Shown: positions 17,078 through 58,811, counted from the stretch's first letter. The stretch is DNA of 64,000 nucleotides from Synechococcus sp. (GCA_047284725.1 JBJBEO010000001.1:1048203-1112202), one strand, 5' to 3'. The notes: generated by a model not told the origin, from the letters alone. Program-made: numbers and translations.

Positions 17078-17154
<77 letters not shown>

Positions 17155-30157: not shown

Positions 30158-30841
30158 TCAAGCGCCCTGGCTTGCCTGCAGATTCCCATCCTCCGACACC
30201 ATCAGCTTCGAGAAAAAATCGGCTTGTTCGGGTTTGATGGCACCCATGGAGACGAGCACATCGCCGATGCGAGGTCTGGTGGCCATGCGCGCTTGCTTGG
30301 CTGTGGCTTCCTTGAGACTGTCTTCGTCAATCAGACCCATGGCAATCAGACGTTCTCCCAGTCGTTTGCTGTTGAACTGGTGCAGGTCTTCCGAGGACAG
30401 CCCCAGCATGAAATCGATCACCTTGTGGGGCAGACACATCTTCAGCTTCAGGAATTCACCAAAGCGTTGAGAGCCGGAGAAGGGAATGTATTCCTGTAGA
30501 AGTTCATCCAGTTCGTCCTGGCTGAGCAGCCCTGACACCACAAGTTTCTGACCTAACTCGAGTTTTTCGAAGGCCTTGTCTGGATTGTGGGCCGTGGTAT
30601 CGAGGCTGCCCTGAATCAGTTCGGGCGCACCAAAAACTTTCTGCACCCATTCATTGGCGTTGAGAAAGCTCAGCAGTTCAGTCGGCTGGGGAGACCTCTC
30701 ACCAAAGGCATCCTGAACCAGTTCTTCAACAAAGGCCACCTGAGGGGCGGAGCCGAAATAGGTGTAGCGCAGATAGGAGCCTGACCCATGGCCTGCGATC
30801 TCAACGCGTGCAGACCCGGAACGGAGTTCAATCGTCAGCAT
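30158..30841 (-). CDS. Stand-alone protein with tandem MshEN-like c-di-GMP-binding motifs
   Basis: Residues 160-183 RLGERLIAMGLIDEDSLKEATAKQ fit RLGxxLxxxGxxxxxxLxxxLxxQ except Thr for the last Leu; then RIGDVLVSMGAI; a more degenerate pair (ELGQKLVVSGLL / RFGEFL) lies at residues 95-149. Confidence 0.8.
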   Translation of the reverse strand: MLTIELRSGSARVEIAGHGSGSYLRYTYFGSAPQVAFVEELVQDAFGERSPQPTELLSFLNANEWVQKVFGAPELIQGSLDTTAHNPDKAFEKLELGQKLVVSGLLSQDELDELLQEYIPFSGSQRFGEFLKLKMCLPHKVIDFMLGLSSEDLHQFNSKRLGERLIAMGLIDEDSLKEATAKQARMATRPRIGDVLVSMGAIKPEQADFFSKLMVSEDGNLQASQGA

Positions 30842-30864
30842 TGATCGTGGCGCCGTATCAGCAC

Positions 30865-30878
30865 TTGATAGCTATCAA
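30865..30878. promoter_or_regulatory. Perfect 14-bp palindrome in divergent promoter (candidate operator)
   Basis: TTGATAGCTATCAA is its own reverse complement; lies between the MshEN gene and the T1SS operon. Confidence 0.5.
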
Positions 30879-30983
30879 CGATAAGACGACTCAAGGCTGT
30901 CGCCAAGTGTTACATCGTTGTTGACGCTTGTCTTCATGCCTAAGTTGCGGGTGTTTAAAACCAGTCGTGGGCTTTCTTCGGCG

Positions 30984-32702
30984 ATGACTGCATCAGTGAA
31001 TCAGCACGCGCGATCGTTCTGGGGCAACAGCGTCAGCAGGGTTCAGCGCACCTATGCGAACTGCCGTGAGCTCTGGCAGGAGCTCATCAGTCATCGCTAT
31101 TTTCAGAGTATTCGATCCTTCGATTGGCACAGCATTCAGCTGGGGCAGATTCTTGTCGCGTCGGCGTTGATCAATCTGCTTGAGCTGTCAACGCCGCTCT
31201 ACATCAATATCGTCTACACGTCGATTCTTCCCAAACGTGCCAACGACAGCCTGATCCTGCTCACGGTGCTTGTGGTGCTGGCCATGGCGGCAGGGGGATG
31301 GCTGAAAGCGCTTCGGCTGTCGCTGGTCGGTCGGGAGAGTGCCCAGATCGAGCACCGCAAGCGTCTGGATGCCTATGCGCGCTTTGTGAACACCCCTGTT
31401 GGTCGCTTTCTGGCCAACAATGCATCGGTTCATCTATCCAGGCTGAACAGTATCAATCTGCTGCGCGATGAAAGTGCGGTGCAAACCCTCACGGTGGCCG
31501 TTGATCTCGCCTTCTCGCTGCTGTTCATCCTTGTGTTCATGCTTCTCGGTGGCATCCTCGTGCTGCCGGTGGTGATTGGAATCGCCATTTACTTCTTCAA
31601 GTCGCTCGCATTCTCCCGCGAATTTGAAGCTCTCAATCGCGACAAGGACAAGCTGGACATCGAGCGGCAGCATTATCAGTCGCAGGTGCTTGATTCCGTT
31701 GATCTGATCAAAACCAACGGTCTCAACAATCAGTTTCTTGTTGATGGTGAGCCGCTTCAGGAGCGTTGGTCCTGGCAGCGCATGACCAACGCCACCGCGA
31801 TTGGCAATTATCAGGCGTTAGGCAGCTACATCAGCCAGGTGACCTTTGCCTGTGTGGTCACGATGGGAGCTCTGATGATCATTGGCGACCGTCTCCTGGT
31901 CGGTGCCCTTGCGGCCTGTCTGCTCCTGGTAGGCAAGATTTTCAGCCCCTGGCAGCAGGCGATGACCTTCTGGAACAGTTTCCGGCGCCTCGGCCATTCG
32001 TTTGATGAATACGAAGCGTTGATGGAGGAGCCAGAGGAGCTTCCCAGTGGCTCCACAACCTTCATGCCGGCTGTTCAGGAGCGACTGGAACTGCTGGTCG
32101 GCCCATCCGTTGCGCTCTCGTGTCCCTACGGACAAGCGATGCTGGTGCGTGATCAGGAGTACGGCAATCACGTCAAGGACCTGTTCGTGAAGCTGATCCG
32201 CGCCGATCGAGACGACGGGATCGTTCTTGACGGCCAGAACCTTTCCAGCTACAGCACTGACTCGCTGCGTGAGGCGTTTGCCTATTGCGCCCCCTCGTCG
32301 CAGTTCTTTGAGGGGACCATCCTGCAGAACATCTGCAAATTCCAGCCCAGTCGCTATCAGAAATCCGCCTATTTCTGGTCGGTGCTGCTGGGAGTGGACT
32401 CCGAGATCCGAGCCTTGCCCGGTGGCTACGACACCACCATTGGCACGGCCAAGCCCAGTGGTCTCTCGATCGATTCGCAGTATCTGCTGCAGGTGATCGC
32501 AGCCCTGTCGGGAACGGCGTCGGTCGTGCTTCTCGATCTCAGTGATTGTTCCTTCGGCAAGCGCTTTGTCGAGGGCCTGGAACTGATCCTTCAACGCTGC
32601 GCAGGACGCAAGACGATTCTGGTGAATGGCAGTGGTCGTGTTCTGGAACGGCTGATTGCGAACCAATCGACCCTCGTGCTGTCGCCCGCATCGGGGGGAT
32701 GA
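30984..32702 (+). CDS. Type I secretion ABC subunit 1 (TMD plus degenerate NBD)
   Basis: HlyB/PrtD-like TMD (ASALINLLELSTPLY, VGALAACLLL); FFEGTILQNI and LPGGYDTTIG retained but no Walker A; start 30918-30984. Confidence 0.85.
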   Translation: MTASVNQHARSFWGNSVSRVQRTYANCRELWQELISHRYFQSIRSFDWHSIQLGQILVASALINLLELSTPLYINIVYTSILPKRANDSLILLTVLVVLAMAAGGWLKALRLSLVGRESAQIEHRKRLDAYARFVNTPVGRFLANNASVHLSRLNSINLLRDESAVQTLTVAVDLAFSLLFILVFMLLGGILVLPVVIGIAIYFFKSLAFSREFEALNRDKDKLDIERQHYQSQVLDSVDLIKTNGLNNQFLVDGEPLQERWSWQRMTNATAIGNYQALGSYISQVTFACVVTMGALMIIGDRLLVGALAACLLLVGKIFSPWQQAMTFWNSFRRLGHSFDEYEALMEEPEELPSGSTTFMPAVQERLELLVGPSVALSCPYGQAMLVRDQEYGNHVKDLFVKLIRADRDDGIVLDGQNLSSYSTDSLREAFAYCAPSSQFFEGTILQNICKFQPSRYQKSAYFWSVLLGVDSEIRALPGGYDTTIGTAKPSGLSIDSQYLLQVIAALSGTASVVLLDLSDCSFGKRFVEGLELILQRCAGRKTILVNGSGRVLERLIANQSTLVLSPASGG

Positions 32703-32752
32703 AGGCCTGATCCCTTCACGTCTTTGACGATCGCATTTCCTTTCCTGCTGCC

Positions 32753-34885
32753 ATGACTCTTTCCCGTTCTCTGACCCGCGACCTGACGCTCAGCTCGGAG
32801 GCTCCCCTCGCCTTCTGTCTGCGCTTGTTTCTGCAGAGCCTGCAATGGACCGGTCAAAGCTCTGATTTCGCCAGTGTGATGGGGCGCGATCCCCGCAGCC
32901 TCGACCTGGTGGATGCACGCAATGTTCTGCTCAGGCTTGGTTACAACACACGTTTATTGCAGATCAATGATTTCAACGACCTGAAAACCACACTGCTGCC
33001 GGCCCTCTACGTCTCGCCTGACGACCAACCGTTTGTGCTGCAGAACGGCCCGGACGAAGGCCTTCAGGTGGTCAACGCCAGTGGTGTGTTCCCCCTCGAC
33101 GCCGTCGCGCCGGGTGGATGGATTCTGGTGCTGGACGACACGGAGCTGAATCAGCGTTCATCCTTCATTGAGATTCTGTTGCTTCGCTTCTCCACGAAGA
33201 TCAGAACGCTCTATCTGATCAGCTTTGCGATCGCATTGCTGTCATTGGCGCTGCCTTTTTACATTCGCGCTGTTTACAACATCGCCATTCCAGCCCGCAG
33301 TCTGAGCTCCACCTTCTGGCTGCTGATCGGTGGTGCCTTCGTGTTCACCCTCGATCTGAATTTAAGGCAGTGGCGCGTGAAGCTGCTCTCCAATCTGGGC
33401 GGCCGATTGGATGTGTTGTTTGGCCTCAAGTTGCTGCAGAAATTTCTGGGTCTTGATTTCCGGCAACTGGAAATGATGGGCTACGGAGGCTTCAGCAGTC
33501 GCTCGCGCAATCTCGAGTCGATTCTTGCCTATGCGCAGGGGCCTCTGGCTCTGGCCTTGCTCGATTCCCCCTTTGTCTTCCTCTATCTGCTGGCGATCTG
33601 GTGGCTTGGCGGTGCGCTTGTGCTCGTGCCGATTGTGATCATGGTCTTGAGCGGCGTGTTGATTGCCTTCCTCTCGCGCTACTACAGCAGTGCGCAGGAA
33701 TTGAACATCACCACGGGCATCAGTCTGTTCCAGGCACAGCAGGAACTGGTGCGCCGCTTTCTGGAGGTGCGTCTCTCCAATCTGGAGTGGGTGTGGTTCC
33801 AGCGTCTGCGTGGACTGTCGGGTCAAAGCACCTCCACCAGCCTGACGATCAACGAACAGGTGGGCCGACTTCAGGTGATCTCCTCCACCGCCTCGCAGCT
33901 GGCCGGTGTGATCACCTTGGGCGTGGGGTGCTGGTTTGCCTTCCAGTCCCAGGACCCCAAGGTGTACGGAAACCTGATCGCCGCCATGTTCCTGGTGTGG
34001 CGTGTGTTCACGCCGTTCCAGTACTTCATGAGTGCTCTGCTGCGCTTTGAGGCGGTGCGCCGTCAGTACGACCAGTTCGATCAGTTCATGCGTCTTAAGA
34101 CCGGTGATCGTCCCACCAATCTGTCGACCTACGAGGGATTCCGTTTCTCCGGCTACATCGAAATGACGGCTGTCTCCTGCCGCCTGGCTTACGACTCCTC
34201 CTTGCAGCTGACCCGTTGTTCGATGCGGGCGACGCCCGGGGAAATTCTTGCTCTGACGGGCAAATCCGGATCCGGCAAGTCGGTGGCGCTGCGGGTGATT
34301 GATCAGTTGTATCCGGTAAGCAGCGGCACGCTGCTGTTTGACGGCAAGGATCACCGGCAGTTCTCAGCCGATGCGATTCAGCGCAACATCGCCTATGTGT
34401 TGCCGTCACCCCAATTTCTGCCCGGCACCATCTGGGACAACCTTGTTGCCATGAACCCGGATGCCCGTTTTGACGATGTGCAACGGGTTTGCGATCAACT
34501 CGAACTCACCGCCTTCATCGCCTCGTTCCCCGATGGTTATGAATCGATCATCGATCACCAGGCGCTCTATCAGATCCCGATCGGCATCCGCCGATTGTTG
34601 TCGCTCGCGCAGGCCCTGATCAAGGATGCACCGATCCTGCTGATCGATGACATCACGCAGGGATTGACTCCAGAGCAGTTTGAGGTGGTGGCGAAGGTGG
34701 TGCCCACCTTGTCGCAATCCCACTTCAGCCATCAGAAGCGCACGGTGATTCTCTCGACCGATAACGCCATGCTGCTGGATCTTGCCGACAGGATCTGCAT
34801 CCTTGATAAGGGCGTGACCGCTTTTGAAGGCACCCAGGACGAACTCAAGCAGAGTTTGCAGAAGAACAGCGCGATGCCGGGATGA
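32753..34885 (+). CDS. Type I secretion ABC subunit 2 (C39-like N-domain, TMD, NBD)
   Basis: N-terminal ~130-aa CLD-like region, TMD, Walker A GKSGSGKS, GTIWDNL, ILLIDD. Confidence 0.88.
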   Translation: MTLSRSLTRDLTLSSEAPLAFCLRLFLQSLQWTGQSSDFASVMGRDPRSLDLVDARNVLLRLGYNTRLLQINDFNDLKTTLLPALYVSPDDQPFVLQNGPDEGLQVVNASGVFPLDAVAPGGWILVLDDTELNQRSSFIEILLLRFSTKIRTLYLISFAIALLSLALPFYIRAVYNIAIPARSLSSTFWLLIGGAFVFTLDLNLRQWRVKLLSNLGGRLDVLFGLKLLQKFLGLDFRQLEMMGYGGFSSRSRNLESILAYAQGPLALALLDSPFVFLYLLAIWWLGGALVLVPIVIMVLSGVLIAFLSRYYSSAQELNITTGISLFQAQQELVRRFLEVRLSNLEWVWFQRLRGLSGQSTSTSLTINEQVGRLQVISSTASQLAGVITLGVGCWFAFQSQDPKVYGNLIAAMFLVWRVFTPFQYFMSALLRFEAVRRQYDQFDQFMRLKTGDRPTNLSTYEGFRFSGYIEMTAVSCRLAYDSSLQLTRCSMRATPGEILALTGKSGSGKSVALRVIDQLYPVSSGTLLFDGKDHRQFSADAIQRNIAYVLPSPQFLPGTIWDNLVAMNPDARFDDVQRVCDQLELTAFIASFPDGYESIIDHQALYQIPIGIRRLLSLAQALIKDAPILLIDDITQGLTPEQFEVVAKVVPTLSQSHFSHQKRTVILSTDNAMLLDLADRICILDKGVTAFEGTQDELKQSLQKNSAMPG

Positions 34886-34953
34886 CCTGACGCCCCCGAG
34901 CCGTCTGCTTGCTGTCAACCACGTTTCTTCCACTCTCTTTCCTCTTAAACGTC

Positions 34954-36339
34954 ATGACCACCACCTCCGCTTCCTCCTCCACTCCCTCCAACAACAGCTC
35001 CAGCCTGTCAACCGACAGTCTGCTCAGCTCCTTCTCTTCCCTGACCACGTCCGACACCTCGGCGTTGATCGGTCGCAATCGCCTCAATCAGGCCCTCGAA
35101 CTCGAAGAACCGCGCGACAATAAATTCCTGCGGCGAACACTGTTCGGTCTGGGCGGGGCGGCGCTGATTTTCTTCCCCTGGGCGCTGCTCACACCGATCA
35201 CGCAGGTGGTGCAAGCGTCCGGTGAGGTGGTTCCCAAGGGTTCGGTGAGTGTTCTCCAGCACCTGGAAGGCGGGATCGTTTCGAATGTGTCGGTGCAGAA
35301 CGGCCAGACTGTGAGCAAAGGCGATGTGCTTCTGACGCTCAATCCCAAACTGGTTGGCAGTGAATATGCGGCGATGCAGGCCAAGCTGGAAGCGTTGCTG
35401 CTGCAACAGCAACAGCTCCAGGCCGCCATCCGTGGTGATGGAAAGCTTCCAGAGGACACGGTTGGATCCGGTGAGCCTGCCAACGCCAAGATTGCTGAGG
35501 CTCAGCAGGCACTGCTCGATAGCCGTTTGAGCAACACTGCCGATCAGGTGGAGGCATCCAAAGCGATCGTGGCTGAAAAAGAGGCTGAGGTGGCTGGTCT
35601 GTCCGACCAGTTGCGCCTCACCATTGAGGAACGTGAGATGTGGGGGCAGCTCACCGATTCCGGTGCAGCGTCACAACTGCAGTACCTCACGGCCAGAGCC
35701 AAGGTGGCTGAAACCCGCACGGCTTTGAATGAGTCTCGCAAGGCACTCAGTCAGGCCAAGGCGAATCTGCGCGGTCTGAATTCAGGCCTTGTGTTTGAGC
35801 AGAATTCCCAGATTGCCCAGCTCGTCAATGAAGAGCAGGTGGTGGCTGAAAACATCCAGAAGATCAAGTTTCAGCTGGATCGCACCAAAGTCACCGCACC
35901 GGTGGATGGTGTGGTGAGTGACCTGCGTTTCCATGCCCCTGGCGCTGTGGTGGGTCCTGGTGCTGTGGTGGGGGCCGTGGTGCCTGCCGGCAGCAACAAG
36001 CTGGCGGAGATCCGCATTCCTTCCCAGGACATCGGCTTTGTCAAGGTGGGGCAGGACGTGAAGGTGAACCTTGCGCCCTATGACTCCTCGGTGTATGGAT
36101 CGATTCCTGGTCAGTTGGTGAGTATTTCCGGCGACACAGTGCAGGATCCGGATAACCGCCAGTTTTATTACATCGGTCAGGTGCAGCTCGAGCGCCAGAC
36201 CGTACATCCCTCAGGCAAGAAATACCCGATTCAGGTGGGTATGCCTGTGGTGGCTGATATCCAGGGCCAGCGCAGCAATGTGTTGCGTTATCTGTTCCAG
36301 CCGTTTGTGCGCACGATGGGCGGTGCTCTGAGGGAGTGA
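34954..36339 (+). CDS. HlyD-family type I secretion periplasmic adaptor
   Basis: Single TM, ASGEVVP...LQHLEGGIV, coiled coil, APVDGVV, DIGFVKVGQ, GMPVVADI. Confidence 0.95.
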   Translation: MTTTSASSSTPSNNSSSLSTDSLLSSFSSLTTSDTSALIGRNRLNQALELEEPRDNKFLRRTLFGLGGAALIFFPWALLTPITQVVQASGEVVPKGSVSVLQHLEGGIVSNVSVQNGQTVSKGDVLLTLNPKLVGSEYAAMQAKLEALLLQQQQLQAAIRGDGKLPEDTVGSGEPANAKIAEAQQALLDSRLSNTADQVEASKAIVAEKEAEVAGLSDQLRLTIEEREMWGQLTDSGAASQLQYLTARAKVAETRTALNESRKALSQAKANLRGLNSGLVFEQNSQIAQLVNEEQVVAENIQKIKFQLDRTKVTAPVDGVVSDLRFHAPGAVVGPGAVVGAVVPAGSNKLAEIRIPSQDIGFVKVGQDVKVNLAPYDSSVYGSIPGQLVSISGDTVQDPDNRQFYYIGQVQLERQTVHPSGKKYPIQVGMPVVADIQGQRSNVLRYLFQPFVRTMGGALRE

Positions 36340-36380
36340 TCACCGGCGTTTCGCGCCGCCTCTCAGTTTGCATTCAGGTT

Positions 36381-36407
36381 CAAACCCCCTGCGCTGCAGG
36401 GGGTTTG
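36381..36407. terminator. Perfect 12-bp-stem hairpin after the T1SS operon
   Basis: CAAACCCCCTGC-GCT-GCAGGGGGTTTG. Confidence 0.7.
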
Positions 36408-36527
36408 CTGTTATCAGCGTATTCTCAGGGTTCTAGAGGTTCGTCCCTCAGTGACTGAATCCTGTTTTGCAAGAGAAGCGGAATAACTTGAAAACATCAC
36501 CTAGTAGTGCCTTCAGGACGACGAACG

Positions 36528-39500
36528 ATGGTTGACGAAAATCTCACCTCTGATCAAACCGGTTTTGATGCTGCTGGTACCGATGAGCAGACCAAACAGG
36601 TTGTCCAGGCTTCTGAGCAGCAAGTTCACGTGCCCGGTGGCCGTACAGCTCCAGTTGAGGGCAATACAGAGGTCCCTGATGTGCCCTATGAGGGCGAACC
36701 CGAGACGGTGAATCCGGGGAAGCCCCCAGCCAATGCAGTGGGTCCTGAGATTGAGGTGCAGACCCAACCCCAAGGCCTCGGCGGGGGCGTCACTCTTGCT
36801 TCTGAAGAGCCGGTTGAGGCGGATGAGCCTGAAACGCTACAACTTCTTGAATCTCCTGTTCCTACGGCGGATCCAATCATCACGGAAACAGTCGATGAAG
36901 GGGTCGCTCCTGCCATTGAGCCCGAGCCGGAGCCGGAGCCGGATCCAGAGCCTCAGCTCGAATTTTCGTTGGATGATCCACAGCTGGTGACGCCTGATGC
37001 AGGTACACCAGATGGTTCAGCACCGGTGGCGGTTGGTGATAACACCGATCAATCTCCTGTGAGTGTGACGACACGGGTTGCGACTCCCGTGCCTGGTCAA
37101 CTTGATTTTGACCTGAATCTCACATCTGGCAGTCCGATAACTATTCGGGACTCACTGACCGGCCAAACTGTTCAATTAAGAATTGACCGGGTCGATGGTG
37201 AGGATGTTGTTGTTGGATTTATTGGTAGTGGTGCCAATGAAACAACAGTTTTTACTGTTTCCGGCAATGAGCTTGATGGAACCATCACGCTGACTCAGTT
37301 CCGGTCGGTTCTGCATGGAGATCCACAAACCGATCCTAATACGAATGATCGTGTTGGCCTGTTTGGTCAAAATCCTGATAACGAGACTCCACCAGCGGGC
37401 TCTGAGCGCATTGTGCTTGTTGGTACATTGACCCAAGCTGACGGCCAGTCAGTTACGCAAGAAATTGATATCACGAATGCCATTGTTTTTACTGATGATG
37501 AGCCTGAGGTCAATGTTGAGGGTTCAGACATTGAGGGTTTGTTTGTCACGTATGATGGAAATACTTCCCTCGATGGTAATTTTCAAGGCTCTTCGAATGG
37601 AGATGTGCCTGCTGCTGGAACAGATTCTGATTCAGTTGTGATACCTGCTGCTTCGATTGAAGCTGCTTTCGTTTCTTCTGTTGATTACAATGCAGATGGA
37701 CCTGCTGCATCGGATATATCGCCTACTGGCGAACCTTCACCAGTTGTATCTGATTACCAGCTAGTTTTATTCGAAGACATCGTATCTGGAGTCACCCCTG
37801 TTCGAGATGATGACGGCTCTATTTGGCGCAGTCAGGGTGAGGAAGTCATATGGTTTGAAGTTTTAGGAGTCAATGGAGACCTTCTCAAGGTTGAAGGGCG
37901 AATTGATTTGGCTGGCGAGCAGATTGTTGTTTTTGATGTTGTTATTAATTCTGATCCCGCCGAGCCCGATGTTTTCGGCGATCTTGTCTTTACGCAATAC
38001 GAACAGTTGGATCATCTTGTTCCAACTTCGTCCGACTACACTTCCGATGAAAGAACACTTGGTAATAATCAGCTCTTTGTCGAGCAGCAAATAACTGCTA
38101 CAGATGCAGATTTTGATACTGATACGGCTACGGCTCGTATTGATCTTGGCAATAATTTGATTGTTGGTGATGACGGCCCAGCGATTGGCGAACTTGGCGA
38201 GGTTGATCTGAGTCAGATCACGCTGGTGACATCGGATGCAGCAGCAGCTGGTGGTAACTACACCGGCGGGTTTAGCGCCAGTGCGGATGCTGATTTTGAT
38301 GCAGCGTTTGAAGCCGTTGTGAGTGCTGCAGTGCTTGCAGGGGAGATTGATTTTGGAGCGGATATTGGAGGGACTGAGACTGCGGATGTCTCGAACTACA
38401 AGTTGGAGCTTGGTGATCTCGTTGGGGTCGGTGGTGTAACGGGGCTAACGAGTGAGGAACCCGGAACGGAAGGCGATCCCATTTATGTGTTCCTGAATGC
38501 TGCTGGAACGCAGTTGGTTGGTAGTACGAATGCTGGATATGACATTGCGGTCGATGGGATCGATGGAACGGTTGCATTCACGGTTGACCTGACGGGTGTG
38601 AATGACGTCGGCAATGTGGAGCTGACGCAGTATCAGGCTGTGACTCAGCCTGTTGCTCAAACGGATCCGGCTGCTCCGAACGATCCAATCACGGGTTATC
38701 CGAGTGATGAGGTGACGCTGGACGGTCTGGTGAAGTTGTCAGGAACAGTGACAGCGACAGACAGTGATGGAGACAAGGCGACGACAACACTGAGCACCGA
38801 CATTGGCGACAGTCTGGAACTGCGTGATGACGGCCCAGCGATTGGCGAACTTGGCGAGGTTGATCTGAGTCAGATCACGCTGGTGACATCGGATGCAGCA
38901 GCAGCTGGTGGTAACTACACCGGCGGGTTTAGCGCCAGTGCGGATGCTGATTTTGATGCAGCGTTTGAAGCCGTTGTGAGTGCTGCAGTGCTTGCAGGGG
39001 AGATTGATTTTGGAGCGGATATTGGAGGGACTGAGACTGCGGATGTCTCGAACTACAAGTTGGAGCTTGGTGATCTCGTTGGGGTCGGTGGTGTAACGGG
39101 GCTAACGAGTGAGGAACCCGGAACGGAAGGCGATCCCATTTATGTGTTCCTGAATGCTGCTGGAACGCAGTTGGTTGGTAGTACGAATGCTGGATATGAC
39201 ATTGCGGTCGATGGGATCGATGGAACGGTTGCATTCACGGTTGACCTGACGGGTGTGAATGACGTCGGCAATGTGGAGCTGACGCAGTATCAGGCTGTGA
39301 CTCAGCCTGTTGCTCAAACGGATCCGGCTGCTCCGAACGATCCAATCACGGGTTATCCGAGTGATGAGGTGACGCTGGACGGTCTGGTGAAGTTGTCAGG
39401 AACAGTGACAGCGACAGACAGTGATGGAGACAAGGCGACGACAACACTGAGCACCGACATTGGCGACAGTCTGGAACTGCGTGATGACGGCCCAGCGATT

Positions 39501-42500
39501 GGCGAACTTGGCGAGGTTGATCTGAGTCAGATCACGCTGGTGACATCGGATGCAGCAGCAGCTGGTGGTAACTACACCGGCGGGTTTAGCGCCAGTGCGG
39601 ATGCTGATTTTGATGCAGCGTTTGAAGCCGTTGTGAGTGCTGCAGTGCTTGCAGGGGAGATTGATTTTGGAGCGGATATTGGAGGGACTGAGACTGCGGA
39701 TGTCTCGAACTACAAGTTGGAGCTTGGTGATCTCGTTGGGGTCGGTGGTGTAACGGGGCTAACGAGTGAGGAACCCGGAACGGAAGGCGATCCCATTTAT
39801 GTGTTCCTGAATGCTGCTGGAACGCAGTTGGTTGGTAGTACGAATGCTGGATATGACATTGCGGTCGATGGGATCGATGGAACGGTTGCATTCACGGTTG
39901 ACCTGACGGGTGTGAATGACGTCGGCAATGTGGAGCTGACGCAGTATCAGGCTGTGACTCAGCCTGTTGCTCAAACGGATCCGGCTGCTCCGAACGATCC
40001 AATCACGGGTTATCCGAGTGATGAGGTGACGCTGGACGGTCTGGTGAAGTTGTCAGGAACAGTGACAGCGACAGACAGTGATGGAGACAAGGCGACGACA
40101 ACACTGAGCACCGACATTGGCGACAGTCTGGAACTGCGTGATGACGGCCCAGCGATTGGCGAACTTGGCGAGGTTGATCTGAGTCAGATCACGCTGGTGA
40201 CATCGGATGCAGCAGCAGCTGGTGGTAACTACACCGGCGGGTTTAGCGCCAGTGCGGATGCTGATTTTGATGCAGCGTTTGAAGCCGTTGTGAGTGCTGC
40301 AGTGCTTGCAGGGGAGATTGATTTTGGAGCGGATATTGGAGGGACTGAGACTGCGGATGTCTCGAACTACAAGTTGGAGCTTGGTGATCTCGTTGGGGTC
40401 GGTGGTGTAACGGGGCTAACGAGTGAGGAACCCGGAACGGAAGGCGATCCCATTTATGTGTTCCTGAATGCTGCTGGAACGCAGTTGGTTGGTAGTACGA
40501 ATGCTGGATATGACATTGCGGTCGATGGGATCGATGGAACGGTTGCATTCACGGTTGACCTGACGGGTGTGAATGACGTCGGCAATGTGGAGCTGACGCA
40601 GTATCAGGCTGTGACTCAGCCTGTTGCTCAAACGGATCCGGCTGCTCCGAACGATCCAATCACGGGTTATCCGAGTGATGAGGTGACGCTGGACGGTCTG
40701 GTGAAGTTGTCAGGAACAGTGACAGCGACAGACAGTGATGGAGACAAGGCGACGACAACACTGAGCACCGACATTGGCGACAGTCTGGAACTGCGTGATG
40801 ACGGCCCAGCGATTGGCGAACTTGGCGAGGTTGATCTGAGTCAGATCACGCTGGTGACATCGGATGCAGCAGCAGCTGGTGGTAACTACACCGGCGGGTT
40901 TAGCGCCAGTGCGGATGCTGATTTTGATGCAGCGTTTGAAGCCGTTGTGAGTGCTGCAGTGCTTGCAGGGGAGATTGATTTTGGAGCGGATATTGGAGGG
41001 ACTGAGACTGCGGATGTCTCGAACTACAAGTTGGAGCTTGGTGATCTCGTTGGGGTCGGTGGTGTAACGGGGCTAACGAGTGAGGAACCCGGAACGGAAG
41101 GCGATCCCATTTATGTGTTCCTGAATGCTGCTGGAACGCAGTTGGTTGGTAGTACGAATGCTGGATATGACATTGCGGTCGATGGGATCGATGGAACGGT
41201 TGCATTCACGGTTGACCTGACGGGTGTGAATGACGTCGGCAATGTGGAGCTGACGCAGTATCAGGCTGTGACTCAGCCTGTTGCTCAAACGGATCCGGCT
41301 GCTCCGAACGATCCAATCACGGGTTATCCGAGTGATGAGGTGACGCTGGACGGTCTGGTGAAGTTGTCAGGAACAGTGACAGCGACAGACAGTGATGGAG
41401 ACAAGGCGACGACAACACTGAGCACCGACATTGGCGACAGTCTGGAACTGCGTGATGACGGCCCAGCGATTGGCGAACTTGGCGAGGTTGATCTGAGTCA
41501 GATCACGCTGGTGACATCGGATGCAGCAGCAGCTGGTGGTAACTACACCGGCGGGTTTAGCGCCAGTGCGGATGCTGATTTTGATGCAGCGTTTGAAGCC
41601 GTTGTGAGTGCTGCAGTGCTTGCAGGGGAGATTGATTTTGGAGCGGATATTGGAGGGACTGAGACTGCGGATGTCTCGAACTACAAGTTGGAGCTTGGTG
41701 ATCTCGTTGGGGTCGGTGGTGTAACGGGGCTAACGAGTGAGGAACCCGGAACGGAAGGCGATCCCATTTATGTGTTCCTGAATGCTGCTGGAACGCAGTT
41801 GGTTGGTAGTACGAATGCTGGATATGACATTGCGGTCGATGGGATCGATGGAACGGTTGCATTCACGGTTGACCTGACGGGTGTGAATGACGTCGGCAAT
41901 GTGGAGCTGACGCAGTATCAGGCTGTGACTCAGCCTGTTGCTCAAACGGATCCGGCTGCTCCGAACGATCCAATCACGGGTTATCCGAGTGATGAGGTGA
42001 CGCTGGACGGTCTGGTGAAGTTGTCAGGAACAGTGACAGCGACAGACAGTGATGGAGACAAGGCGACGACAACACTGAGCACCGACATTGGCGACAGTCT
42101 GGAACTGCGTGATGACGGCCCAGCGATTGGCGAACTTGGCGAGGTTGATCTGAGTCAGATCACGCTGGTGACATCGGATGCAGCAGCAGCTGGTGGTAAC
42201 TACACCGGCGGGTTTAGCGCCAGTGCGGATGCTGATTTTGATGCAGCGTTTGAAGCCGTTGTGAGTGCTGCAGTGCTTGCAGGGGAGATTGATTTTGGAG
42301 CGGATATTGGAGGGACTGAGACTGCGGATGTCTCGAACTACAAGTTGGAGCTTGGTGATCTCGTTGGGGTCGGTGGTGTAACGGGGCTAACGAGTGAGGA
42401 ACCCGGAACGGAAGGCGATCCCATTTATGTGTTCCTGAATGCTGCTGGAACGCAGTTGGTTGGTAGTACGAATGCTGGATATGACATTGCGGTCGATGGG

Positions 42501-50837: not shown

Positions 50838-50860
50838 GGTCTGATGCCAACAGCGTGATG

Positions 50861-50896
50861 AAGAAGACGCCTGAGTCCAGGGCGTCTTCTTTTTTT
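50861..50896 (+). terminator. Intrinsic terminator of the giant gene
   Basis: AAGAAGACGCC...GGCGTCTTCTT stem with T tract. Confidence 0.85.
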
Positions 50897-50915
50897 GTCA
50901 TGAGTCACTTTATGA

Positions 50916-51647
50916 TTGGATTGGGTTAATCAAGAGCCTGTGCAGGATCGTCTGCTTCTTATTGCTGATACTGGCTCCGATCAAGATCTTCTTCGTAAGC
51001 ATCTTGAAGCGAGAGGATTTTTTGTAGTTCGTGTTGATTCTGTTCAGGCGGCGCTAGACCATCTGCCTCACGGCGATGTTTCGCTCGTTCTTCTCGCTCT
51101 CAGTGAAGACGCCTTAACGCTTGAAAATAAGGATCGTTTTCTCCTCCATCAGCAGTTCCAGGCCGATCGTCTGACCATTCCCCTGTTTCACCTGCTTGAT
51201 GACGACAATTTTTCACTCCGCTCGGCGTCTCTGAAGGCAGGCGCCGATGACGTGTTGTCGCGTCCCTTTGCCTGGGAAGAGCTGGACGCACGAATCATGG
51301 CGTTGTTGCGTCGCGTGCGGATGGGGCAGTCCCATGCCGACGGAGACCTTCTCAGCCTTGATAACCTTGAATTCAACATCAAGACCCGAGAAGTCTGTCG
51401 AAATGACAGCAAAGCGAAACTGACGGTGAAGGAATTCGATCTGCTTAAATTCCTGTTTCATAATCTCGATCAGGTCGTATCTCGCCAGTCAATCCTGCAT
51501 GGTGTGTGGGGTCAGAGCTGGACTGGTGATGACAACCTTCTCGATGTGTACATCCGTTATCTCCGCAAGAAAATTGAACGGGAGGGGCAGCCTCAACTGA
51601 TTCAAACCGTAAAAGGTGTGGGTTACATCCTCAAAACGCCCACCTAA
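50916..51647 (+). CDS. OmpR-family regulator with atypical (pseudo) receiver, NblR-like
   Basis: wHTH LTVKEFDLL...WG...DVYIRYLRKKIE...IQTVKGVGY; receiver lacks the phospho-Asp and conserved Lys; start TTG 50916 or GTG 50940. Confidence 0.88.
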   Translation: MDWVNQEPVQDRLLLIADTGSDQDLLRKHLEARGFFVVRVDSVQAALDHLPHGDVSLVLLALSEDALTLENKDRFLLHQQFQADRLTIPLFHLLDDDNFSLRSASLKAGADDVLSRPFAWEELDARIMALLRRVRMGQSHADGDLLSLDNLEFNIKTREVCRNDSKAKLTVKEFDLLKFLFHNLDQVVSRQSILHGVWGQSWTGDDNLLDVYIRYLRKKIEREGQPQLIQTVKGVGYILKTPT

Positions 51648-51706
51648 AAAACGCTGGTCAGGCAATGAAAGCGTTGTGAGGTGATCTCTGATCTTTCGTT
51701 AACTGG

Positions 51707-54700
51707 TCAGGCCACTCCTTCGATGCGATCCTCCACTTCCTGATACAGCTCCTGCAGCTGCTGGATGTTTTCGTCGGAGGTTTCCCAGTAGCCACGGCCA
51801 TTCACCTCCAGCAGGGTGCCGACGATGCGGCGGAAACTGTGCGGGTTGAGCTCCAGCAGACGCTTGCGCATCTCTGGATCGTTGATGAACGTTTCGTTGG
51901 CTTCTTCATACACGAAGTTATCAACAGACCCGCTGGTGGCACTCCAGCCCAGAGTGAAATTGAGCCGTTTGGCCACTTCCCGTACGCCCTCATAGCCCGA
52001 ATCCAGCATGCCTTCGTACCACTTGGGATTGAGCAGCTTCGTTCGGGAGTCGAGCCGGATTGTCTCACTGAGGGAGCGCACCTGGGCATTGGCCGTGGTG
52101 GTGTCGGCGATGTAACTGGTCGGTGCCTTGCCGTCGTCCCGCAGACCCTTGATCAGGTTGGTGGGGTCACTGTCGAAGTAGTGGCTCACATCGGTGAGGG
52201 AGATCTCGGCCGAATCCAGGTTCTGGAAGGTGACATCGGCGGTTTTCATCGCCGATTCAAACACCTCACGCTTCTGGTTCATCTCACCGGGGTTGTCGGC
52301 GTTGAAGGCAAAGGTCTTGCGCGATAGATACATCTCCTGCAGTTCACCTTCTTCCTCCCAGGTGCTGTTCTCCACCGCCAGATTCACATTAGAGCTGTAG
52401 CTGCCACTGGCGTTGGAGAACACCCGGCAGGCGGCATCGCGGAGGCTGGTGCCATCCTTCTCGGCCTGCTCCAGGGAGTGCTTGCGCACGAAGTTCTGCT
52501 CCAGCGGCTCCTCTGCTTCGGCGGCCATCTTCACGCCCTGGTCGATCAAGGCCATCTGGTTGATGAACAGATCGCGGAACACACCCGAGCAGTTCACCAC
52601 CACATCGATGCGGGGACGCCCCAGTTCCTCAAGTGGAATCAGCTCCAGCTTGTTGACCCGGCCGAGGGAGTCGGGCACCGGACGCACGCCGATGAACCAG
52701 AGGATCTGGGCCAGGGACTCGCCGTAGGTCTTGATGTTGTCGGTGCCCCACAGCACGCAGGCGATGGTTTCCGGCCAGGTGCCCTGCTCCTGTTTCTGGC
52801 GCTCGATCAGTTTGTCGACCACACCCTTGGCCGCTGCCACGGCAGCGCGGGTGGGAATGGCCTGGGGATCGAGCGCGTGAATGTTCTTGCCACTGGGCAG
52901 AACGCCGGGGTTGCGGATCGGATCGCCACCGGGGCCTGGCAGCACATATTCACCGTCCAGTGCCCGCAGCAGGCTCTCCATCTCCATGTCGGCGCAGACC
53001 TGCTCAAGGCAGAAGCGCAGGTAGGCGAACAGTTTGTCGAGCTCCACCGAATCAACGCTGGTGAAACCGGCCGAACAACAGGCCCGTAGCCAGGGGGTGG
53101 GCAGCTTGAAACCGACCTTGGTCAGCCAATCCATCAGCCAGCCGAAGTTGCCGCGCAGGTTGACGCGACCATCGAGGCCGGTGAGGGAGCGCACCATCGA
53201 GCCGATCGCAGACCGGCTGGTCTCGGTGATCGTGCGGTTCAGCTCCACGTCGGCGAGCACGCCGTCGTCGTTGCCCTTGTAGACATCGTCGATGCTGCGG
53301 CCAATGGCCTCGGCCAGCAGACCAGGAAGGGACCTCAGGCCGTCTTCTTCCCGTTCCAGCGCCGCGATGTTCACCAGGGTGGCAATCGCTTCTTCTGCCG
53401 TGGGCGGCTTGCCGATGGTGTGCAGTCCGCAGGGCAGCAACCGGCTTTCGATCTCCATCAACTGGCGGTAGACCGAACCCACCAGCGCATCCCGCCCTTC
53501 CAGATCAAGCGTGGAGGAGTCGTCGTTAGGCAGGTCAACGTCTTTATCGAGATTGCACTGGCGCGCGGTCTCCACGATCGTGTTCACGATCTGCACACCG
53601 CGGCCCCCCTCCCGCAGCTGTTGGTAGGAACCCACCAGTTCCCCCAGTTCCTTCAGTCCCTTGTAGAGGCCGGCGTTCTCAGCCGGAGGTGTGAGGTAGC
53701 TGATGGTGGAGGCATAGCCACGGCGCTTGGCGATGGTGGCCTCCGACGGGTTGTTGGCGGCGTAGTAATAGAGGTTGGGCAGGGCGCCGATCAGGGAATC
53801 CGGGTAGCAGGTTTCGCTCATGCCCATCTGTTTGCCAGGCATGAACTCCAGCGAGCCATGGGTGCCGAAATGCAGAACGGCGTCGGCTTTCCAGATTTTT
53901 TCGAGGTAGGTGTAGTAAGCCGCAAACCCGTGGTGGGGGCTGGCGCTGCGGGAATAGAGCAGACGCATCGGGTCGCCTTCGTAGCCGAAGGTGGGCTGAA
54001 CGCCGACAAAGACGTTGCCGAAGTGGCGGCCGTAGATCAGCAGGTTCTGGCCATCACTGTTGAGGTTGCCGGGGGGCTTGCCCCAGTTCTCTTCCAGTCG
54101 CTCGGAGTAGGGCGTGAGCCTCTCGTATTCCTCCACGCTCATGCGATGGGCGATCGACAGCTCAGGCGCTCCCTGCATGGCCTCGGGATCATTGATCACC
54201 GCCTCCATCAGGGTCTTGGCATCACGGGGAAGGTTCTGCACGTCGTAGCCCTTGGCCTTCATCTCCTCGAGCACCCGGTGGATCGAACCGAACACGTCGA
54301 GATAGGCGGCCGTTCCTACATTCCCCTTGTCGGGGGGGAAGCTGAACACTGTGATGGCTAGTTTCTTGGTTTGTCTCGGCTTGATCCGCAGGGACGACCA
54401 GCGGATCGCCCGTTCGGCGATGGCATCCACCCGATCCTGCAGGGTGTGAGCCTTGCCGGTGGCGTCATCCCGCCCGGAGAGCACGATGGGTTCGATCGCA
54501 CCATCCAGTTCGGGAATGGCGATCTGCAACGCCACCTGAACAGGGTGAAGGCCGAGATCGCTGTCTTCCCACTCCTGGGTGGTCTGGAAGACCAGGGGCA
54601 GCGCCACCATGTAGGGACGGTTCAGTCGCTTCAGGGCCTCCACGGCTTTGGGATGGTCCTGGCGTGCAGGACCGCCGACGAGGGCAAAGCCCGTCAGCGA

Positions 54701-55717
54701 CACCACGCCATCGACCAGGGGCTGCTCCGGATTGAGCGGGTCGTAGAAGAAGGCGTTGACCGGCTTGGAGAAGTCGAGACCGCCGCAGAAGATCGGCAGC
54801 ACCCGGGCACCACGGAACTCCAGCTCCTGGATCACCGCCACGTAGTGAGCATCGTCACCGGTGACGATGTGACTGCGTTGCAGCACCAGACCGATCAACG
54901 GGCCCTGGCGCGCTTCATTGCTGAGGTCGTTTCGGCTGGCCGTCCAGTTGAGGTATTCCTTCAGGTCCTCGAACATCGAGGGGGCCAGGGGATGCCAGAT
55001 GCCCAGATCGGGGAACACCTCTGGATCGGCCACCTCCATGGCAGGGCGATCAGTGCTGTCCGACGCTGGGAAGACGTACTTGTCCGCCAGCATCAGCAGG
55101 AAGTTGCGCAGGTTATCCGGTGTGCCTCCCAGCCAGTACTGGAAGCTGAGCATGAAGCTGCGAGCATCCTGCGCCTTTTCCACGGGCAGGTACTTCAACA
55201 CCGTGGGCAGCGTGTTGAGGAGTTTGAGCATCGCGTCCTGGAAGCCGGCGCCGCCGGACTCCTTCCGCTTCTTCATGAAGCCGGCGATGGCGCTCTTGCT
55301 CTGCCCCAGCTGGGCCATCGAGAAGCTGCCCAGTTTGTTCAGGCGCATCACCTCGGGCATGGAGGGGAAGACCACAGCAGCCTTGAGGCGATCGCGATGG
55401 GGCGTGACGGCATCCACCACTTTCTGGGCCAGATCTTCAATGAAGATCAGCGAGGCCACAAACACATCGGCGGCAGCCACATCCGCCTGAAAGTCAGCGT
55501 AATTATCCGGATCCCGCAGTTCTTCAATCAGATAACCGCTCAGCTCAATCCCAAGCGGACCGTTCTGGGCATTGAGGCTTGTGGCCGCCTGGGTGAGAGC
55601 GTTCTGATACTGAGGCTCAAGCACCACGTACACAGCCTTCATCACTGACTGGTGGTTGTTGGGCTCAGCAGGAACAACCCGGCGATCGGCGGAGCGAACC
55701 TGCGTGAACATCGGCAT
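51707..55717 (-). CDS. chlH: Magnesium chelatase subunit H
   Basis: [54 protein letters not shown]. Confidence 0.99.
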
Positions 55718-55913
55718 GCATTGAGCTATGTGAAGAAGCCTACGAGAATGCAGGCACTGGCGTGGGTTTCAGCCGTGTTGCGTTACATAGAGCCGGAATC
55801 TGATCCGCATCACGGCGTCATCTCTGTGCCGTCATCACGCCTGAATCCTTGCTGCAGGGCAAGTTGTCTGAGCTGGTGCCTGTTCTTAGCCTGAACTCAC
55901 AGGCGCTTGTCGG

Positions 55914-58811
55914 ATGCAGCGGATTCTGGGCAGACGGACCATCCCGCTCCGCTTCCTTCTGCTCCTCGTTTTTGTCCCGCTGGTGGCGGGAACAGGCCTG
56001 GCCGTGTCCTCGTTCATGGCCCAGAGATTGAGAACCCTGGCCCTGGCCGCCACCAGAGCCGAAATGAAAGCGCAGTGGGGCACGGTGCGGCATCGCTGGC
56101 AGCGGATCATGGATCCGGAGCGAAGCCTCAACCACCTTGCCGCTCTCGATGCCCTGGTCACAGCGATCCCCCAGATCGACGGTGAGGTCAGGCGTCAGCT
56201 CCTGATTGAGGCCTCAATGTTGTTTGAGGACGCGCCCCACCTGGCCTCGGTGAACGTGCTCAAGACCAATGGCCATTGGTTCCGTTTCCACAACACCAGG
56301 CTTCTGGCCGATCTCGCCCTTCCGGAGCGTTCCGCGTTGCTGGTGGAACGTCTTCAGCCCGGTCAGAGCACACCGACCTTTTATCTCTTTAATGAGGCGT
56401 TCAATCCTGTCGAGGGCTGGACGCCTGCCCAGGATCGATGGAACACGAAGCAGGACCCTCGGCAGCGCCGATCCCTGAGCGCTGCCCGTCAGTCCGGGAT
56501 GCAATCCGTGCTTTCCAACGATGACCGTCACCCGGTGCTCGGGCCGCTGATCACGCTGGGGCAACAGACGGCCACCGGCGATGTGGTGGAAATGTCGGTT
56601 CCACTCTCCGAACTGCGAGAGCTTCTCATCCAGCTCAGGCCGACCGAATCCTCGAGACTCAGTCTGATCGATCTCAAAGGGGGTGTGTGGCTCACTGATG
56701 AGGTGTCGCCTTCGGGTGCGATCGGCACACACCTCACCCAGTCCAGCGATCCCTTGCTGCGAGGCATCGCCCCCTTCCTGACGAAGCATCTACGGGCGTC
56801 CAATCACTCTTCGCGGCGAAGCGGTGATCAGGACCAGACAGCGCTCAACGAGCTCTACGACGGGGTCGACGTTCAGGAGGTGGTGATCGATGGCAGCCAC
56901 TGGCTGCTGAATGTGGCTGAAATCCCTGCGATCGGTGTTGACGACGAGGCCTCCCTTCTGGTGCTGGCCATCCCCTCGGAGGAGGTGTTCGCGGCGTCGC
57001 TCGCCTCGGTGCGTCAGGCCCAGTGGATCACCCTGGGCATGGTGCTGGCCACCTTGCCGCTGATCTGGCTGCTCACCCGATCCGTCACTGGGTCGCTGCT
57101 GGCCCTGAGGCGACAGGCACGGGCCATTCAGTCGTTTGACTTCTCTTCCGTTCCTCCCACCACCACACCGGTCACGGAGGTGAGGGATCTCAGTGTGGTG
57201 CTCGCCACCATGCGCGACACCATTCATCGCCTGCTGGAAGCATCGGAGGCCCTTGGCGGCGAGCCCGACCTGGATCAGTTGTTGCAACGCCTGCTCCAGC
57301 TGATGCTGGAGAGCAGCGATGCGTCGTCCGGCGTTCTCTATCTCAGGGATGACGACGATGCCGTGGATGGCCTGTTGCGTTCGCGCTTGCAACTGCCCAC
57401 CACGACGTTCCCTGCTGAGCTTAGTGACAAGGCTTTGGATGAGCCGTTTGACACCGATCAAGCCCTTCGTCTGCCGCTGCTGAGCCGCAGCGGTCAGCTG
57501 TTGGGACTGCTGGGGTTGCGTTTCGCCGAACCCCCTCAGGCGGAGAAGGTGGCGTTCTGCAGGGCGCTGGCGGGGTCCGCCTCGATCGCCCTCGAAACCC
57601 GCAGCCTGATCAGCGCCCAGAAAGCGTTGCTGGCGTCGATCATTGAACTGATGGCAGGGGCCATTGATGCCAAAAGCCCCTACACAGGAGGCCACTGTGC
57701 GCGCGTGCCCTTGCTGGCCAAAGCACTGGCAGACGCTGCCTGTGAAGCCACGGACGGACCCTACGCCGGATTTGCGCTGTCCGCCGAGGAACGGGAAGCC
57801 CTGCATGTGGCGTCGTGGCTGCACGATGTCGGCAAGGTCACCACGCCTGAATACGTGGTCGACAAGGCCACCAAACTCGAAACGATTCACAACCGCATCC
57901 ATGAGGTGCGGATGCGGTTTGAACTGCTGAAGGCCTGTGCGGAGATCGATCACTGGAAGGCAATCGCTGCCGGTGACGATCCCCTGCAGAGCCGCGCCCG
58001 CATGGAAGACCTCTGGCGTCAGCTGGATGATGACTTCGCGTTCGTGGCGGCCTGCAATCAGGGGGGTGAGCGTCTGGATCCTGAGGCGATCGATCGCCTC
58101 AACAGCCTGGCGTCGCGTCGCTGGCGGCGCACCCTCGATGATCGCCTGGGTCTGTCTCAGGAGGAGCTCCGCCAGGTGGCTGCTGAACCTGCGCCGCCAC
58201 TGCCCTGCGACGAGCCCCTGCTGGCCGATCGGCTCAGGCATCAGGTGGCCTGGCCCGCCAACAAGGCCATTGAGGCTGACAATCCCTGGGGGTTCACGCT
58301 TCTCGCCCCGCCGCTGCAGGCGAACCGAGGGGAACTGCACAACCTGAGCATCTCGCGGGGAACCCTCACCGATGAGGAGCGCTACACGATCAACCTTCAC
58401 ATTCTCGAGACGATCAAGATGCTCGAGGCGCTGCCGTTCCCGCGTCATCTCAAGGCGGTGCCCGAAATTGCCGGCGGCCACCACGAACGGATGGACGGCA
58501 AGGGCTACCCGCGCAGTCTTCGGGGCGATGAGATGAGCGCCCTGGCGCGCATGATGGCCATCGCCGATGTGTTCGAAGCCCTCACGGCGGCGGATCGCCC
58601 TTACAAATCAGCCAAGCCGTTGTCGGTCGCTCTGACGATCATGGCCTCGATGGTGCAGCAACATCATCTCGACCCTGATCTGTTCAGGCTGTTTGTGCGT
58701 GCAGGGGTGTATCGCCGCTACGCAGACGCGTGCCTCCGGCCCGAGCAGTGTGATGCCGTCGATGAAGAGGCTCTGCTCCAGGCCATCGGCGACGAGGCCC
58801 CCTCCACATAG
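55914..58811 (+). CDS. Membrane-anchored sensor-HAMP-GAF-HD-GYP cyclic-dinucleotide phosphodiesterase
   Basis: Two TM segments flanking a ~330-aa sensor; HAMP-like region; GAF-like region; [44 protein letters not shown]. Confidence 0.9.

Follow-up and report, generated by a model that had tools for sequence, protein, structure and literature searches.

A stand-alone MshEN-type protein linked to a type I secretion locus with a giant repeat protein in Synechococcus

Introduction

In Pseudomonas fluorescens, the LapD/LapG/LapA system places a giant adhesin exported by a type I secretion system (T1SS) under the control of cyclic di-GMP (c-di-GMP). Here, we analyze a locus of partly similar content in a 64,000-nucleotide stretch of a Synechococcus sp. 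genome (GCA_047284725.1, JBJBEO010000001.1:1048203-1112202; hereafter, the window), in which positions 30158-58811 span genes for a small protein related to the c-di-GMP-binding MshEN domain, two ATP-binding cassette (ABC) subunits, an HlyD-family adaptor, a giant repeat protein, an OmpR-family regulator and, beyond chlH, an HD-GYP phosphodiesterase. The likeness to the Lap system lies in a giant repeat protein, an ABC/HlyD-type T1SS, and a second messenger that is proposed to decide the fate of the exported protein. Unlike the Lap system, the window encodes neither a LapD-like GGDEF-EAL receptor nor a LapG-type protease, the candidate receptor being a soluble cytoplasmic MshEN-type protein; moreover, none of the N-terminal retention-module families matches the giant protein, whose N-terminus is of low complexity.

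The locus also resembles classical T1SSs (HlyB-HlyD-TolC; LssB/PrtD) in that its HlyD protein scores over the family cutoff, its ABC proteins find their best matches among T1SS proteins, and the substrate gene lies next door. It differs from them in having two distinct ABC genes instead of a homodimer, both catalytically degenerate and conserved in that state, in ABC scores far under the T1SS cutoffs, in a substrate without GGxGxD, and in the lack of a linked TolC gene (TolC being usually unlinked to T1SS genes). Two ABC subunits together with an HlyD-like protein are likewise found in the NHLP-type bacteriocin exporters (TIGR03796/TIGR03797 plus TIGR03794), whose models give weaker matches. 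Here, however, the scores are far under the cutoffs, no C39 peptidase domain is present (Pfam), and a giant repeat protein takes the place of the small peptide substrate.

As described for MshE by Wang et al. (2016; PMC5013675), the MshEN domain is a 53-residue unit of two 24-residue halves joined by 5 residues, each half following the pattern RLGxx(L/V/I)(L/V/I)xxG(L/V/I)(L/V/I)xxxxLxxxLxxQ. The window protein shares with MshE, PilB, and PilF the tandem helical motif of two such halves, and both its profile and its predicted fold match the MshE structure 5htl. It differs from these proteins in being stand-alone, with no ATPase, a private N-terminal domain, and an extra degenerate motif pair, and in a second half-motif that is altered family-wide, the window copy having in addition a 7-residue spacer and Thr for the stacking Leu.

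Exported giant proteins have been reported for marine Synechococcus (SwmB and others), in which they are strain-specific and thought to shield cells or mediate interactions; the account of these proteins in that study describes no link to a regulator or messenger (Christie-Oleza et al. 2015, PMC4949707). In picocyanobacteria, giant surface proteins are believed to influence how cells are grazed, meet phages, aggregate, and sink, and a receptor-like protein faithfully linked to one giant-protein exporter provides a testable handle on the control of its export.

Results and Discussion

The MshEN-type protein is dedicated to the T1SS locus and co-inherited with it. Its gene (30158-30841, minus strand; 227 aa) is transcribed divergently from ABC1 (30918-32702, plus strand; 594 aa), which is followed on the same strand by ABC2 (32753-34885; 710 aa), the gene for the HlyD-family periplasmic adaptor (34909-36339; 476 aa), and, 168 nt after the latter, the gene for the giant repeat protein, the presumed T1SS substrate (36507-50837; 4,776 aa). 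We searched genome contigs with a profile built from 30 MshEN-type members (alignment A1) and obtained 28 loci, in which the window proteins were compared by tblastn; 25 of them have enough sequence upstream of the MshEN-type gene to be evaluated (L022, L023, and L027 were left out). ABC1 divergently adjoins the MshEN-type gene in 22 of these 25 loci, bearing out the co-occurrence with a T1SS locus that was expected from a first-pass annotation of the window. ABC2 and HlyD are also there in 21 of the 22 linked loci, the remaining one being cut by a contig end, and the opposite flank carries folP, tpiA, and an ABC exporter in 23 of the 28. Because both the flanks and the order of the exporter genes are conserved, the arrangement between folP and chlH is old and syntenic rather than a recent insertion. 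Only L001 and L019 extend to chlH, both ending within it, and no fetched locus goes beyond.

These two loci have decayed in opposite ways. In L001, the closest relative of the window with 99% identity in the ChlH fragment and 81-91% in the flank genes, the ABC and HlyD genes are missing and the MshEN-type gene is broken into two frames (L001:2209-3151), yet the regulator gene is intact, as is a 129-aa ORF (open reading frame) that equals the C-terminal module of the giant protein. In L019, the MshEN-type gene, ABC1, ABC2, and HlyD are all intact, the substrate gene is gone, and the regulator is reduced to a 61-aa remnant. The MshEN-type gene thus goes with the exporter and not with the regulator, with one metagenome-bin case on each side.

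For the 16 taxa in which all proteins are intact, we calculated partial rank correlations of pairwise distances, controlled for the mean of three core neighbors. MshEN-type distances correlate with those of ABC1 (0.83, permutation p 0.0002), ABC2 (0.75, p 0.0002), and HlyD (0.36, p 0.0026); for comparison, the ABC1-ABC2 value is 0.91 (p 0.0002) and the tpiA-ABC1 value 0.00 (p 0.46). It is the divergent adjacency in most evaluable loci, the reciprocal decay, and this co-divergence beyond that of core genes that tie the MshEN-type protein functionally to the T1SS.

Two of the three exceptions to the linkage, L002:8873-14306 and L004:8863-14272, come from lake Synechococcus bins, in which the MshEN-type gene has a sigma-70 gene on one side and, arranged tail-to-tail with it on the other, a gene for a protein of more than 1,200 aa. 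In L002, the MshEN-type gene is divergent from the sigma-70 gene, bidirectional hydrogenase genes lie beyond, and the >1,200-aa protein has VWA and RTX matches (Pfam, run on L002 only); L004 has the same ORF layout. As to the provenance of the loci, L001, L007, and L011 are filed under Salipiger, Chitinophaga, and Acidovorax bins despite their clear picocyanobacterial synteny, likely as a result of bin contamination or mislabelling, and the frame break in L001 may be either a real pseudogene or a metagenome-bin error.

With the NCBIfam model NF053729 ('cyclic di-GMP-binding domain, MshE-related'; cutoff 38 bits), the MshEN-type protein reaches 55.5 bits over residues 160-206. It consists of an N-terminal alpha/beta domain, a degenerate helical pair (residues ~95-150), and the tandem MshEN-like motif (residues 160-214). 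Among 5.8 billion clusters searched, 85 relatives turned up, each of ~225 aa; all those with names are 'hypothetical' and come from Cyanobium, Vulcanococcus, and Synechococcus-like genomes. Since only 10 of the best 150 matches among 1.84 billion representatives cover the full profile, and all 10 are 215-231 aa long, the family appears to be small and without fused forms. The longer matches, considered as possible fusion ('Rosetta stone') partners, agree with the profile in the motif part alone, have Hpt, glycosyltransferase, or TSP3/dockerin matches, and were set aside as uninformative. Pfam gave no match in eight full-length representatives of the family.

On the binding helices, the family profile matches MshE (5htl, E 1.7e-8), Thermus thermophilus PilF, and several PilB proteins. 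An AlphaFold (AF2) model of the window protein has a predicted local distance difference test (pLDDT) score of 86.7, and Foldseek superimposes it on ligand-bound MshE (5htl chains A and B) over 52 columns with a root-mean-square deviation (rmsd) of 0.9-1.1 Å, 35-36% identity, and a probability of 1.00, the E-value being just 0.34-0.55 because the match is short. The predicted fold thus reproduces the four-helix arrangement of MshE. For the N-terminal domain, Foldseek found no credible match in the Protein Data Bank (best unrelated probability ≤0.33); in the ESM Atlas, the whole protein matched only unnamed cyanobacterial clusters (0.77-0.80), and residues 1-92 gave no usable match.

Throughout the family, the first motif keeps its Arg, Gly, and Gln, and the second its Arg/Leu-x-Gly. 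Sequence profiles and the structural model together make a good case for c-di-GMP receptor character at the level of the family, and for the freshwater relatives, with their near-canonical motif, the ligand is probably c-di-GMP. The window copy and its nearest relatives have the most deviant motifs in the family; in this marine-type copy, the motif has drifted such that the ligand, or the dependence on a ligand, may differ. The MshEN assignment of the first-pass annotation hence stands with respect to the curated family model but not with respect to the published motif, since the window copy fails both its strict and its relaxed form.

With these data in hand, we give an even chance to the reading that the locus is a T1SS in which the MshEN-type protein serves as a nucleotide-sensing regulatory partner of the exporter of the giant protein. 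The ABC pair and HlyD would export the giant protein; the MshEN-type protein, most likely acting at the cytoplasmic face of ABC1/ABC2, would be the nucleotide-sensing partner of this exporter and would make secretion of the surface protein responsive to a cyclic dinucleotide signal; the pseudo-receiver OmpR-type protein would be an island-borne transcription factor for the locus; and the HD-GYP enzyme may set cellular dinucleotide levels. Gating of export by c-di-GMP in particular is plausible but unproven.

A number of observations weigh against this reading. With regard to the motif, the window copy does not conform to the 24-residue pattern of Wang et al. (2016) in either form, has Thr at motif position 21 in place of the guanine-stacking Leu, and has a spacer of 7 residues instead of 5, seen as a 2-residue insertion in the alignment to 5htl, which it matches as a single sequence at E 0.0079 only. 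Of 56 family members, 11 have at least one strict pattern and 33 a relaxed one (among the 47 members in which the spacer can be measured, it comprises 5 residues in 40 and 7 residues in 7), and family-wide, the C-terminal half of the second half-motif is altered, with an invariant Phe-Phe and one residue too few. With regard to the messenger, most marine Synechococcus and all Prochlorococcus are without c-di-GMP enzymes according to PMC10124867 and Table 1 of PMC3747582, which give five such enzymes for the coastal strain CC9311, and there is no cyclase in the 64-kb window. With regard to the linkage, the frame break in L001 is a single metagenome-bin case, and divergent gene order is seen more typically with transcription regulators than with transporter subunits. 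Finally, co-divergence with the MshEN-type protein falls with gene distance, from ABC1 through ABC2 to HlyD, and a shared recombination history of the block could therefore yield the same co-divergence without any physical contact, so that the correlation is supportive but not proof.

Part of this evidence bears on a rather unlikely alternative, in which the MshEN-type protein is a ligand-independent T1SS accessory, that is, a scaffold, a chaperone of the substrate's C-terminal module, or a helper of the ABC subunits, with the motif kept as a fold only. Linkage and co-divergence fit this explanation equally well; the motif has drifted in the window clade and its second half has changed in the whole family; the C-terminal module of the substrate is conserved between loci; and marine relatives are generally poor in c-di-GMP enzymes in the surveys cited above (PMC10124867, PMC3747582). 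However, a mere fold would leave the retention across the family of the first-motif Arg, Gly, and Gln and of the second-motif Arg/Leu-x-Gly to be accounted for, as well as the passing of a curated NCBIfam model and the overlay of the predicted helices on ligand-bound MshE at ~1 Å.

The OmpR-family regulator (50916-51647, plus strand) combines an intact winged helix (90.7 bits) with a degenerate receiver that scores 24.1 bits against a cutoff of 30.2. Aligned to Mycobacterium tuberculosis PhoP (3r0j/9ji3), the receiver has Ala in place of the phospho-acceptor Asp, Leu in place of Thr, and Arg in place of Lys, and the protein is thus predicted not to be phosphorylatable at the usual Asp. Its closest relatives are found at 99%, then as five clusters at 75-87%, and then at ≤53% identity, the nearest being without a Pfam receiver call; the MshEN-type protein has a similar ladder, with 97%, then five clusters at 79-85%, and then ≤59%. 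The MshEN-type gene has a G+C content at third codon positions (GC3) of 0.63, the OmpR-type gene one of 0.52, and the giant gene values of 0.38-0.67, compared with 0.71-0.80 for the core neighbors; the three genes share an island-like composition. By its composition and its ladder of relatives, the pseudo-receiver protein belongs to the island, in which, as L001 and L019 show, it decays independently of the MshEN-type gene.

This bears on the possibility that the MshEN-type protein controls transcription rather than export, assisting the OmpR-type protein or a sigma factor as a co-regulator at the divergent promoter. The divergent order is found in all 22 linked loci, with an intergenic length of 76 to 441 nt; the regulator, since it cannot be phosphorylated in the usual way, would need another input; the MshEN-type gene of L002 is divergent from a sigma-70 gene, with the same ORF layout in L004; and among the c-di-GMP receptors of cyanobacteria, some described in bioRxiv 10.64898/2026.03.27.713163 work through transcription factors. 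Even so, we regard this explanation as distinctly improbable: the MshEN-type gene is intact in L019 although the regulator is down to 61 aa, and broken in L001 although the regulator is intact, and no DNA-binding domain was found in the MshEN-type protein by Pfam, NCBIfam, or Foldseek. Nor is there a conserved motif in the intergenic region. In the window, this region (30842-30917, 76 nt) contains a 14-bp perfect palindrome (30865-30878), which is missing from the 21 other loci compared and is hence not a shared operator; the only recurring element, judged by eye, is a -10-like one upstream of the MshEN-type gene.

Returning to the MshEN-type protein as a partner of the exporter, the ABC subunits themselves have unusual features. 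Both are T1SS-type half-transporters, identified through Pfam ABC_membrane (ABC1) and ABC_tran (ABC2). The best NCBIfam match of ABC1 is to T1SS LssB/PrtD/HlyB proteins, with a score far under the family cutoffs, and ABC2 reaches 272.6 bits with TIGR03375 against a cutoff of 693, its N-terminal region aligning to the N-terminal domain of HlyB. The HlyD protein (TIGR01843, Pfam HlyD_3) scores 278.2 bits with TIGR01843 against a cutoff of 208.65 and qualifies as a T1SS membrane fusion protein. In ABC1, the nucleotide-binding domain is degenerate, with no Walker A GK[ST], an altered signature, Asp-Leu at Walker B, and no H-loop His, and these losses are conserved in 22 sequences (alignment A2). 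ABC2 has an intact Walker A; its signature is degenerate, its Walker B reads Asp-Asp (i.e., Asp for the catalytic Glu), and it has no H-loop His, deviations that are conserved in 19 sequences (alignment A3). The description of both proteins as T1SS ABC subunits therefore holds for the type of match, but ABC1 has only a degenerate nucleotide-binding domain. A heterodimer of a dead ABC1 nucleotide-binding domain and an ABC2 with one non-canonical site would have no apparent consensus site for ATP hydrolysis, and that neither composite ATP site looks canonical is one ground for suspecting an important cytoplasmic partner. That both subunits have lost catalytic motifs, and conserve this loss, is likewise relevant to the mechanics of ABC transporters.

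The HD-GYP gene (55914-58811, plus strand; 965 aa) encodes a phosphodiesterase with a membrane sensor. It has an HD_5 match (E 1.7e-45), and intact HD and HHExxDGxGYP motifs can be read from its translation and from its alignments with 5z7c and 4mcw. The protein comprises a periplasmic domain, HAMP, a GAF-like region, and the HD-GYP domain, its homologues carrying dCache_1 plus HAMP; the catalytic domain (window 57600-58808) has a ~160-aa insert between the HD and HHE motifs. Its best solved relative, ahead of c-di-GMP enzymes, is the 3'3'-cyclic GMP-AMP (3'3'-cGAMP) phosphodiesterase of Vibrio cholerae (5z7c, E 3.3e-25).

The first-pass annotation had proposed that six parts form one circuit, in which the HD-GYP enzyme, through its external sensor, lowers c-di-GMP, the MshEN-type protein reads the level, and export of an adhesin is gated as a result. 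This proposal is only partly supported: the link between the MshEN-type protein and the T1SS is upheld by synteny, decay, and co-divergence, but membership of the HD-GYP enzyme is not. In its favor, the enzyme has intact catalytic motifs and is encoded 25 kb from the MshEN-type gene, named genomes that have the MshEN-type family (Cyanobium PCC 7001, Vulcanococcus limneticus, Synechococcus CS-1328, and Aphanothece) also hold HD-GYP relatives, and both kinds of gene are rare in marine picocyanobacteria as surveyed in PMC10124867 and PMC3747582. Yet the freshwater genomes that have both are rich in signalling genes anyway, and the HD-GYP gene forms a separate unit between chlH, from which it diverges, and dapB, with a core-like GC3 of 0.756 that sets it apart from the atypical island genes. 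Its relatives, too, go from 98% straight to 54-55%, unlike those of the MshEN-type and OmpR-type proteins, its closest solved relative is cGAMP-specific, no cyclase is seen in the window, and the adhesin role of the giant protein is putative. We consequently judge the full circuit unlikely; the HD-GYP enzyme is a core-like neighbor encoded on the far side of chlH, and none of our observations ties it to the locus. Its gene occurs in 0 of the 28 fetched loci, none of which extends past chlH.

The cGAMP-like character of the enzyme and the state of the ABC pair enter into a bolder version of the exporter-partner reading, which we also consider unlikely. Here, a T1SS whose ABC pair lacks canonical hydrolysis motifs would be licensed from the cytoplasm by the stand-alone MshEN-type receptor, the marine form of which would have been retuned to a ligand such as cGAMP, matching the cGAMP-like HD-GYP enzyme nearby. 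Besides LapD/LapG, there would then be a second, mechanistically unrelated control of a giant T1SS surface protein by a second messenger.

If the MshEN-type protein does control export, T1SSs would join the machines directly governed by MshEN-type receptors, and an unnamed family would gain a function. It could also explain the retention of an HD-GYP enzyme in a lineage with reportedly few c-di-GMP genes.

The giant protein is acidic and cysteine-free. It has 18 DUF5801 stretches and matches the TIGR03660 T1SS-143 repeat at 81.8 bits against a cutoff of 66.05, which is its sole NCBIfam match at E ≤0.01; the NCBIfam models thus gave no match to a retention module or an adhesin family. Its first ~200 residues are acidic, Pro-rich, and of low complexity, and at the DNA level, 16 tandem copies of a 657-nt unit (219 aa), 97-100% identical, occupy positions 38146-48657. 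It should be noted that the copy number of such an array is prone to mis-assembly and may vary by strain. GGxGxD nonapeptides are absent from the protein (zero found); Asp-rich loops precede the C-terminal module, a conserved helical segment of ~110 residues (window ~50500-50834) that is also found beside HlyD in other loci. As a stand-alone ORF of 129-166 aa, the module occurs beside HlyD in L005:1394-1882, L006:140-607, and L015:2954-3451 and in a locus without HlyD in L001:1804-2190. It is a candidate secretion signal or, alternatively, may represent a separate small substrate. With a putative C-terminal targeting region and T1SS-type repeats, the giant protein has the features of a T1SS substrate. 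Its transcript appears to be closed by a terminator-like hairpin with a 13-bp stem and a T run (50860-50892, plus strand), located between the giant gene and the regulator gene.

An ORF listing and Pfam/NCBIfam scans confirmed the gene inventory of the first-pass annotation (an MshEN-motif protein, two ABC subunits, HlyD, a repeat protein of ~4,770 aa, a pseudo-receiver OmpR regulator and, across chlH, an HD-GYP enzyme), all genes being where they had been placed or close by, and the repeat protein falling within a few residues of its estimated length. Also in agreement with its account, none of the 41 scanned window ORFs (33 beyond the named genes; in 1-30 kb, those of at least 150 aa) encodes a GGDEF or EAL protein, LapD, a LapG-type/transglutaminase-like protease, or TolC. 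It had further noted that no described T1SS regulated by a stand-alone MshEN protein was known, and within the searchable library, we found no paper linking MshEN to type I secretion and no description of this arrangement.

An Rfam scan of the whole window gave no riboswitch, for c-di-GMP or otherwise, its sole match being a tRNA gene at 17081-17154 (minus strand). As to the surroundings of the locus, chlH (51707-55717, minus strand; identified in the Pfam/NCBIfam scans) separates the regulator gene from the HD-GYP gene, and the flank beyond the MshEN-type gene holds an ABC exporter, tpiA, folP, and a DCC1-like gene.

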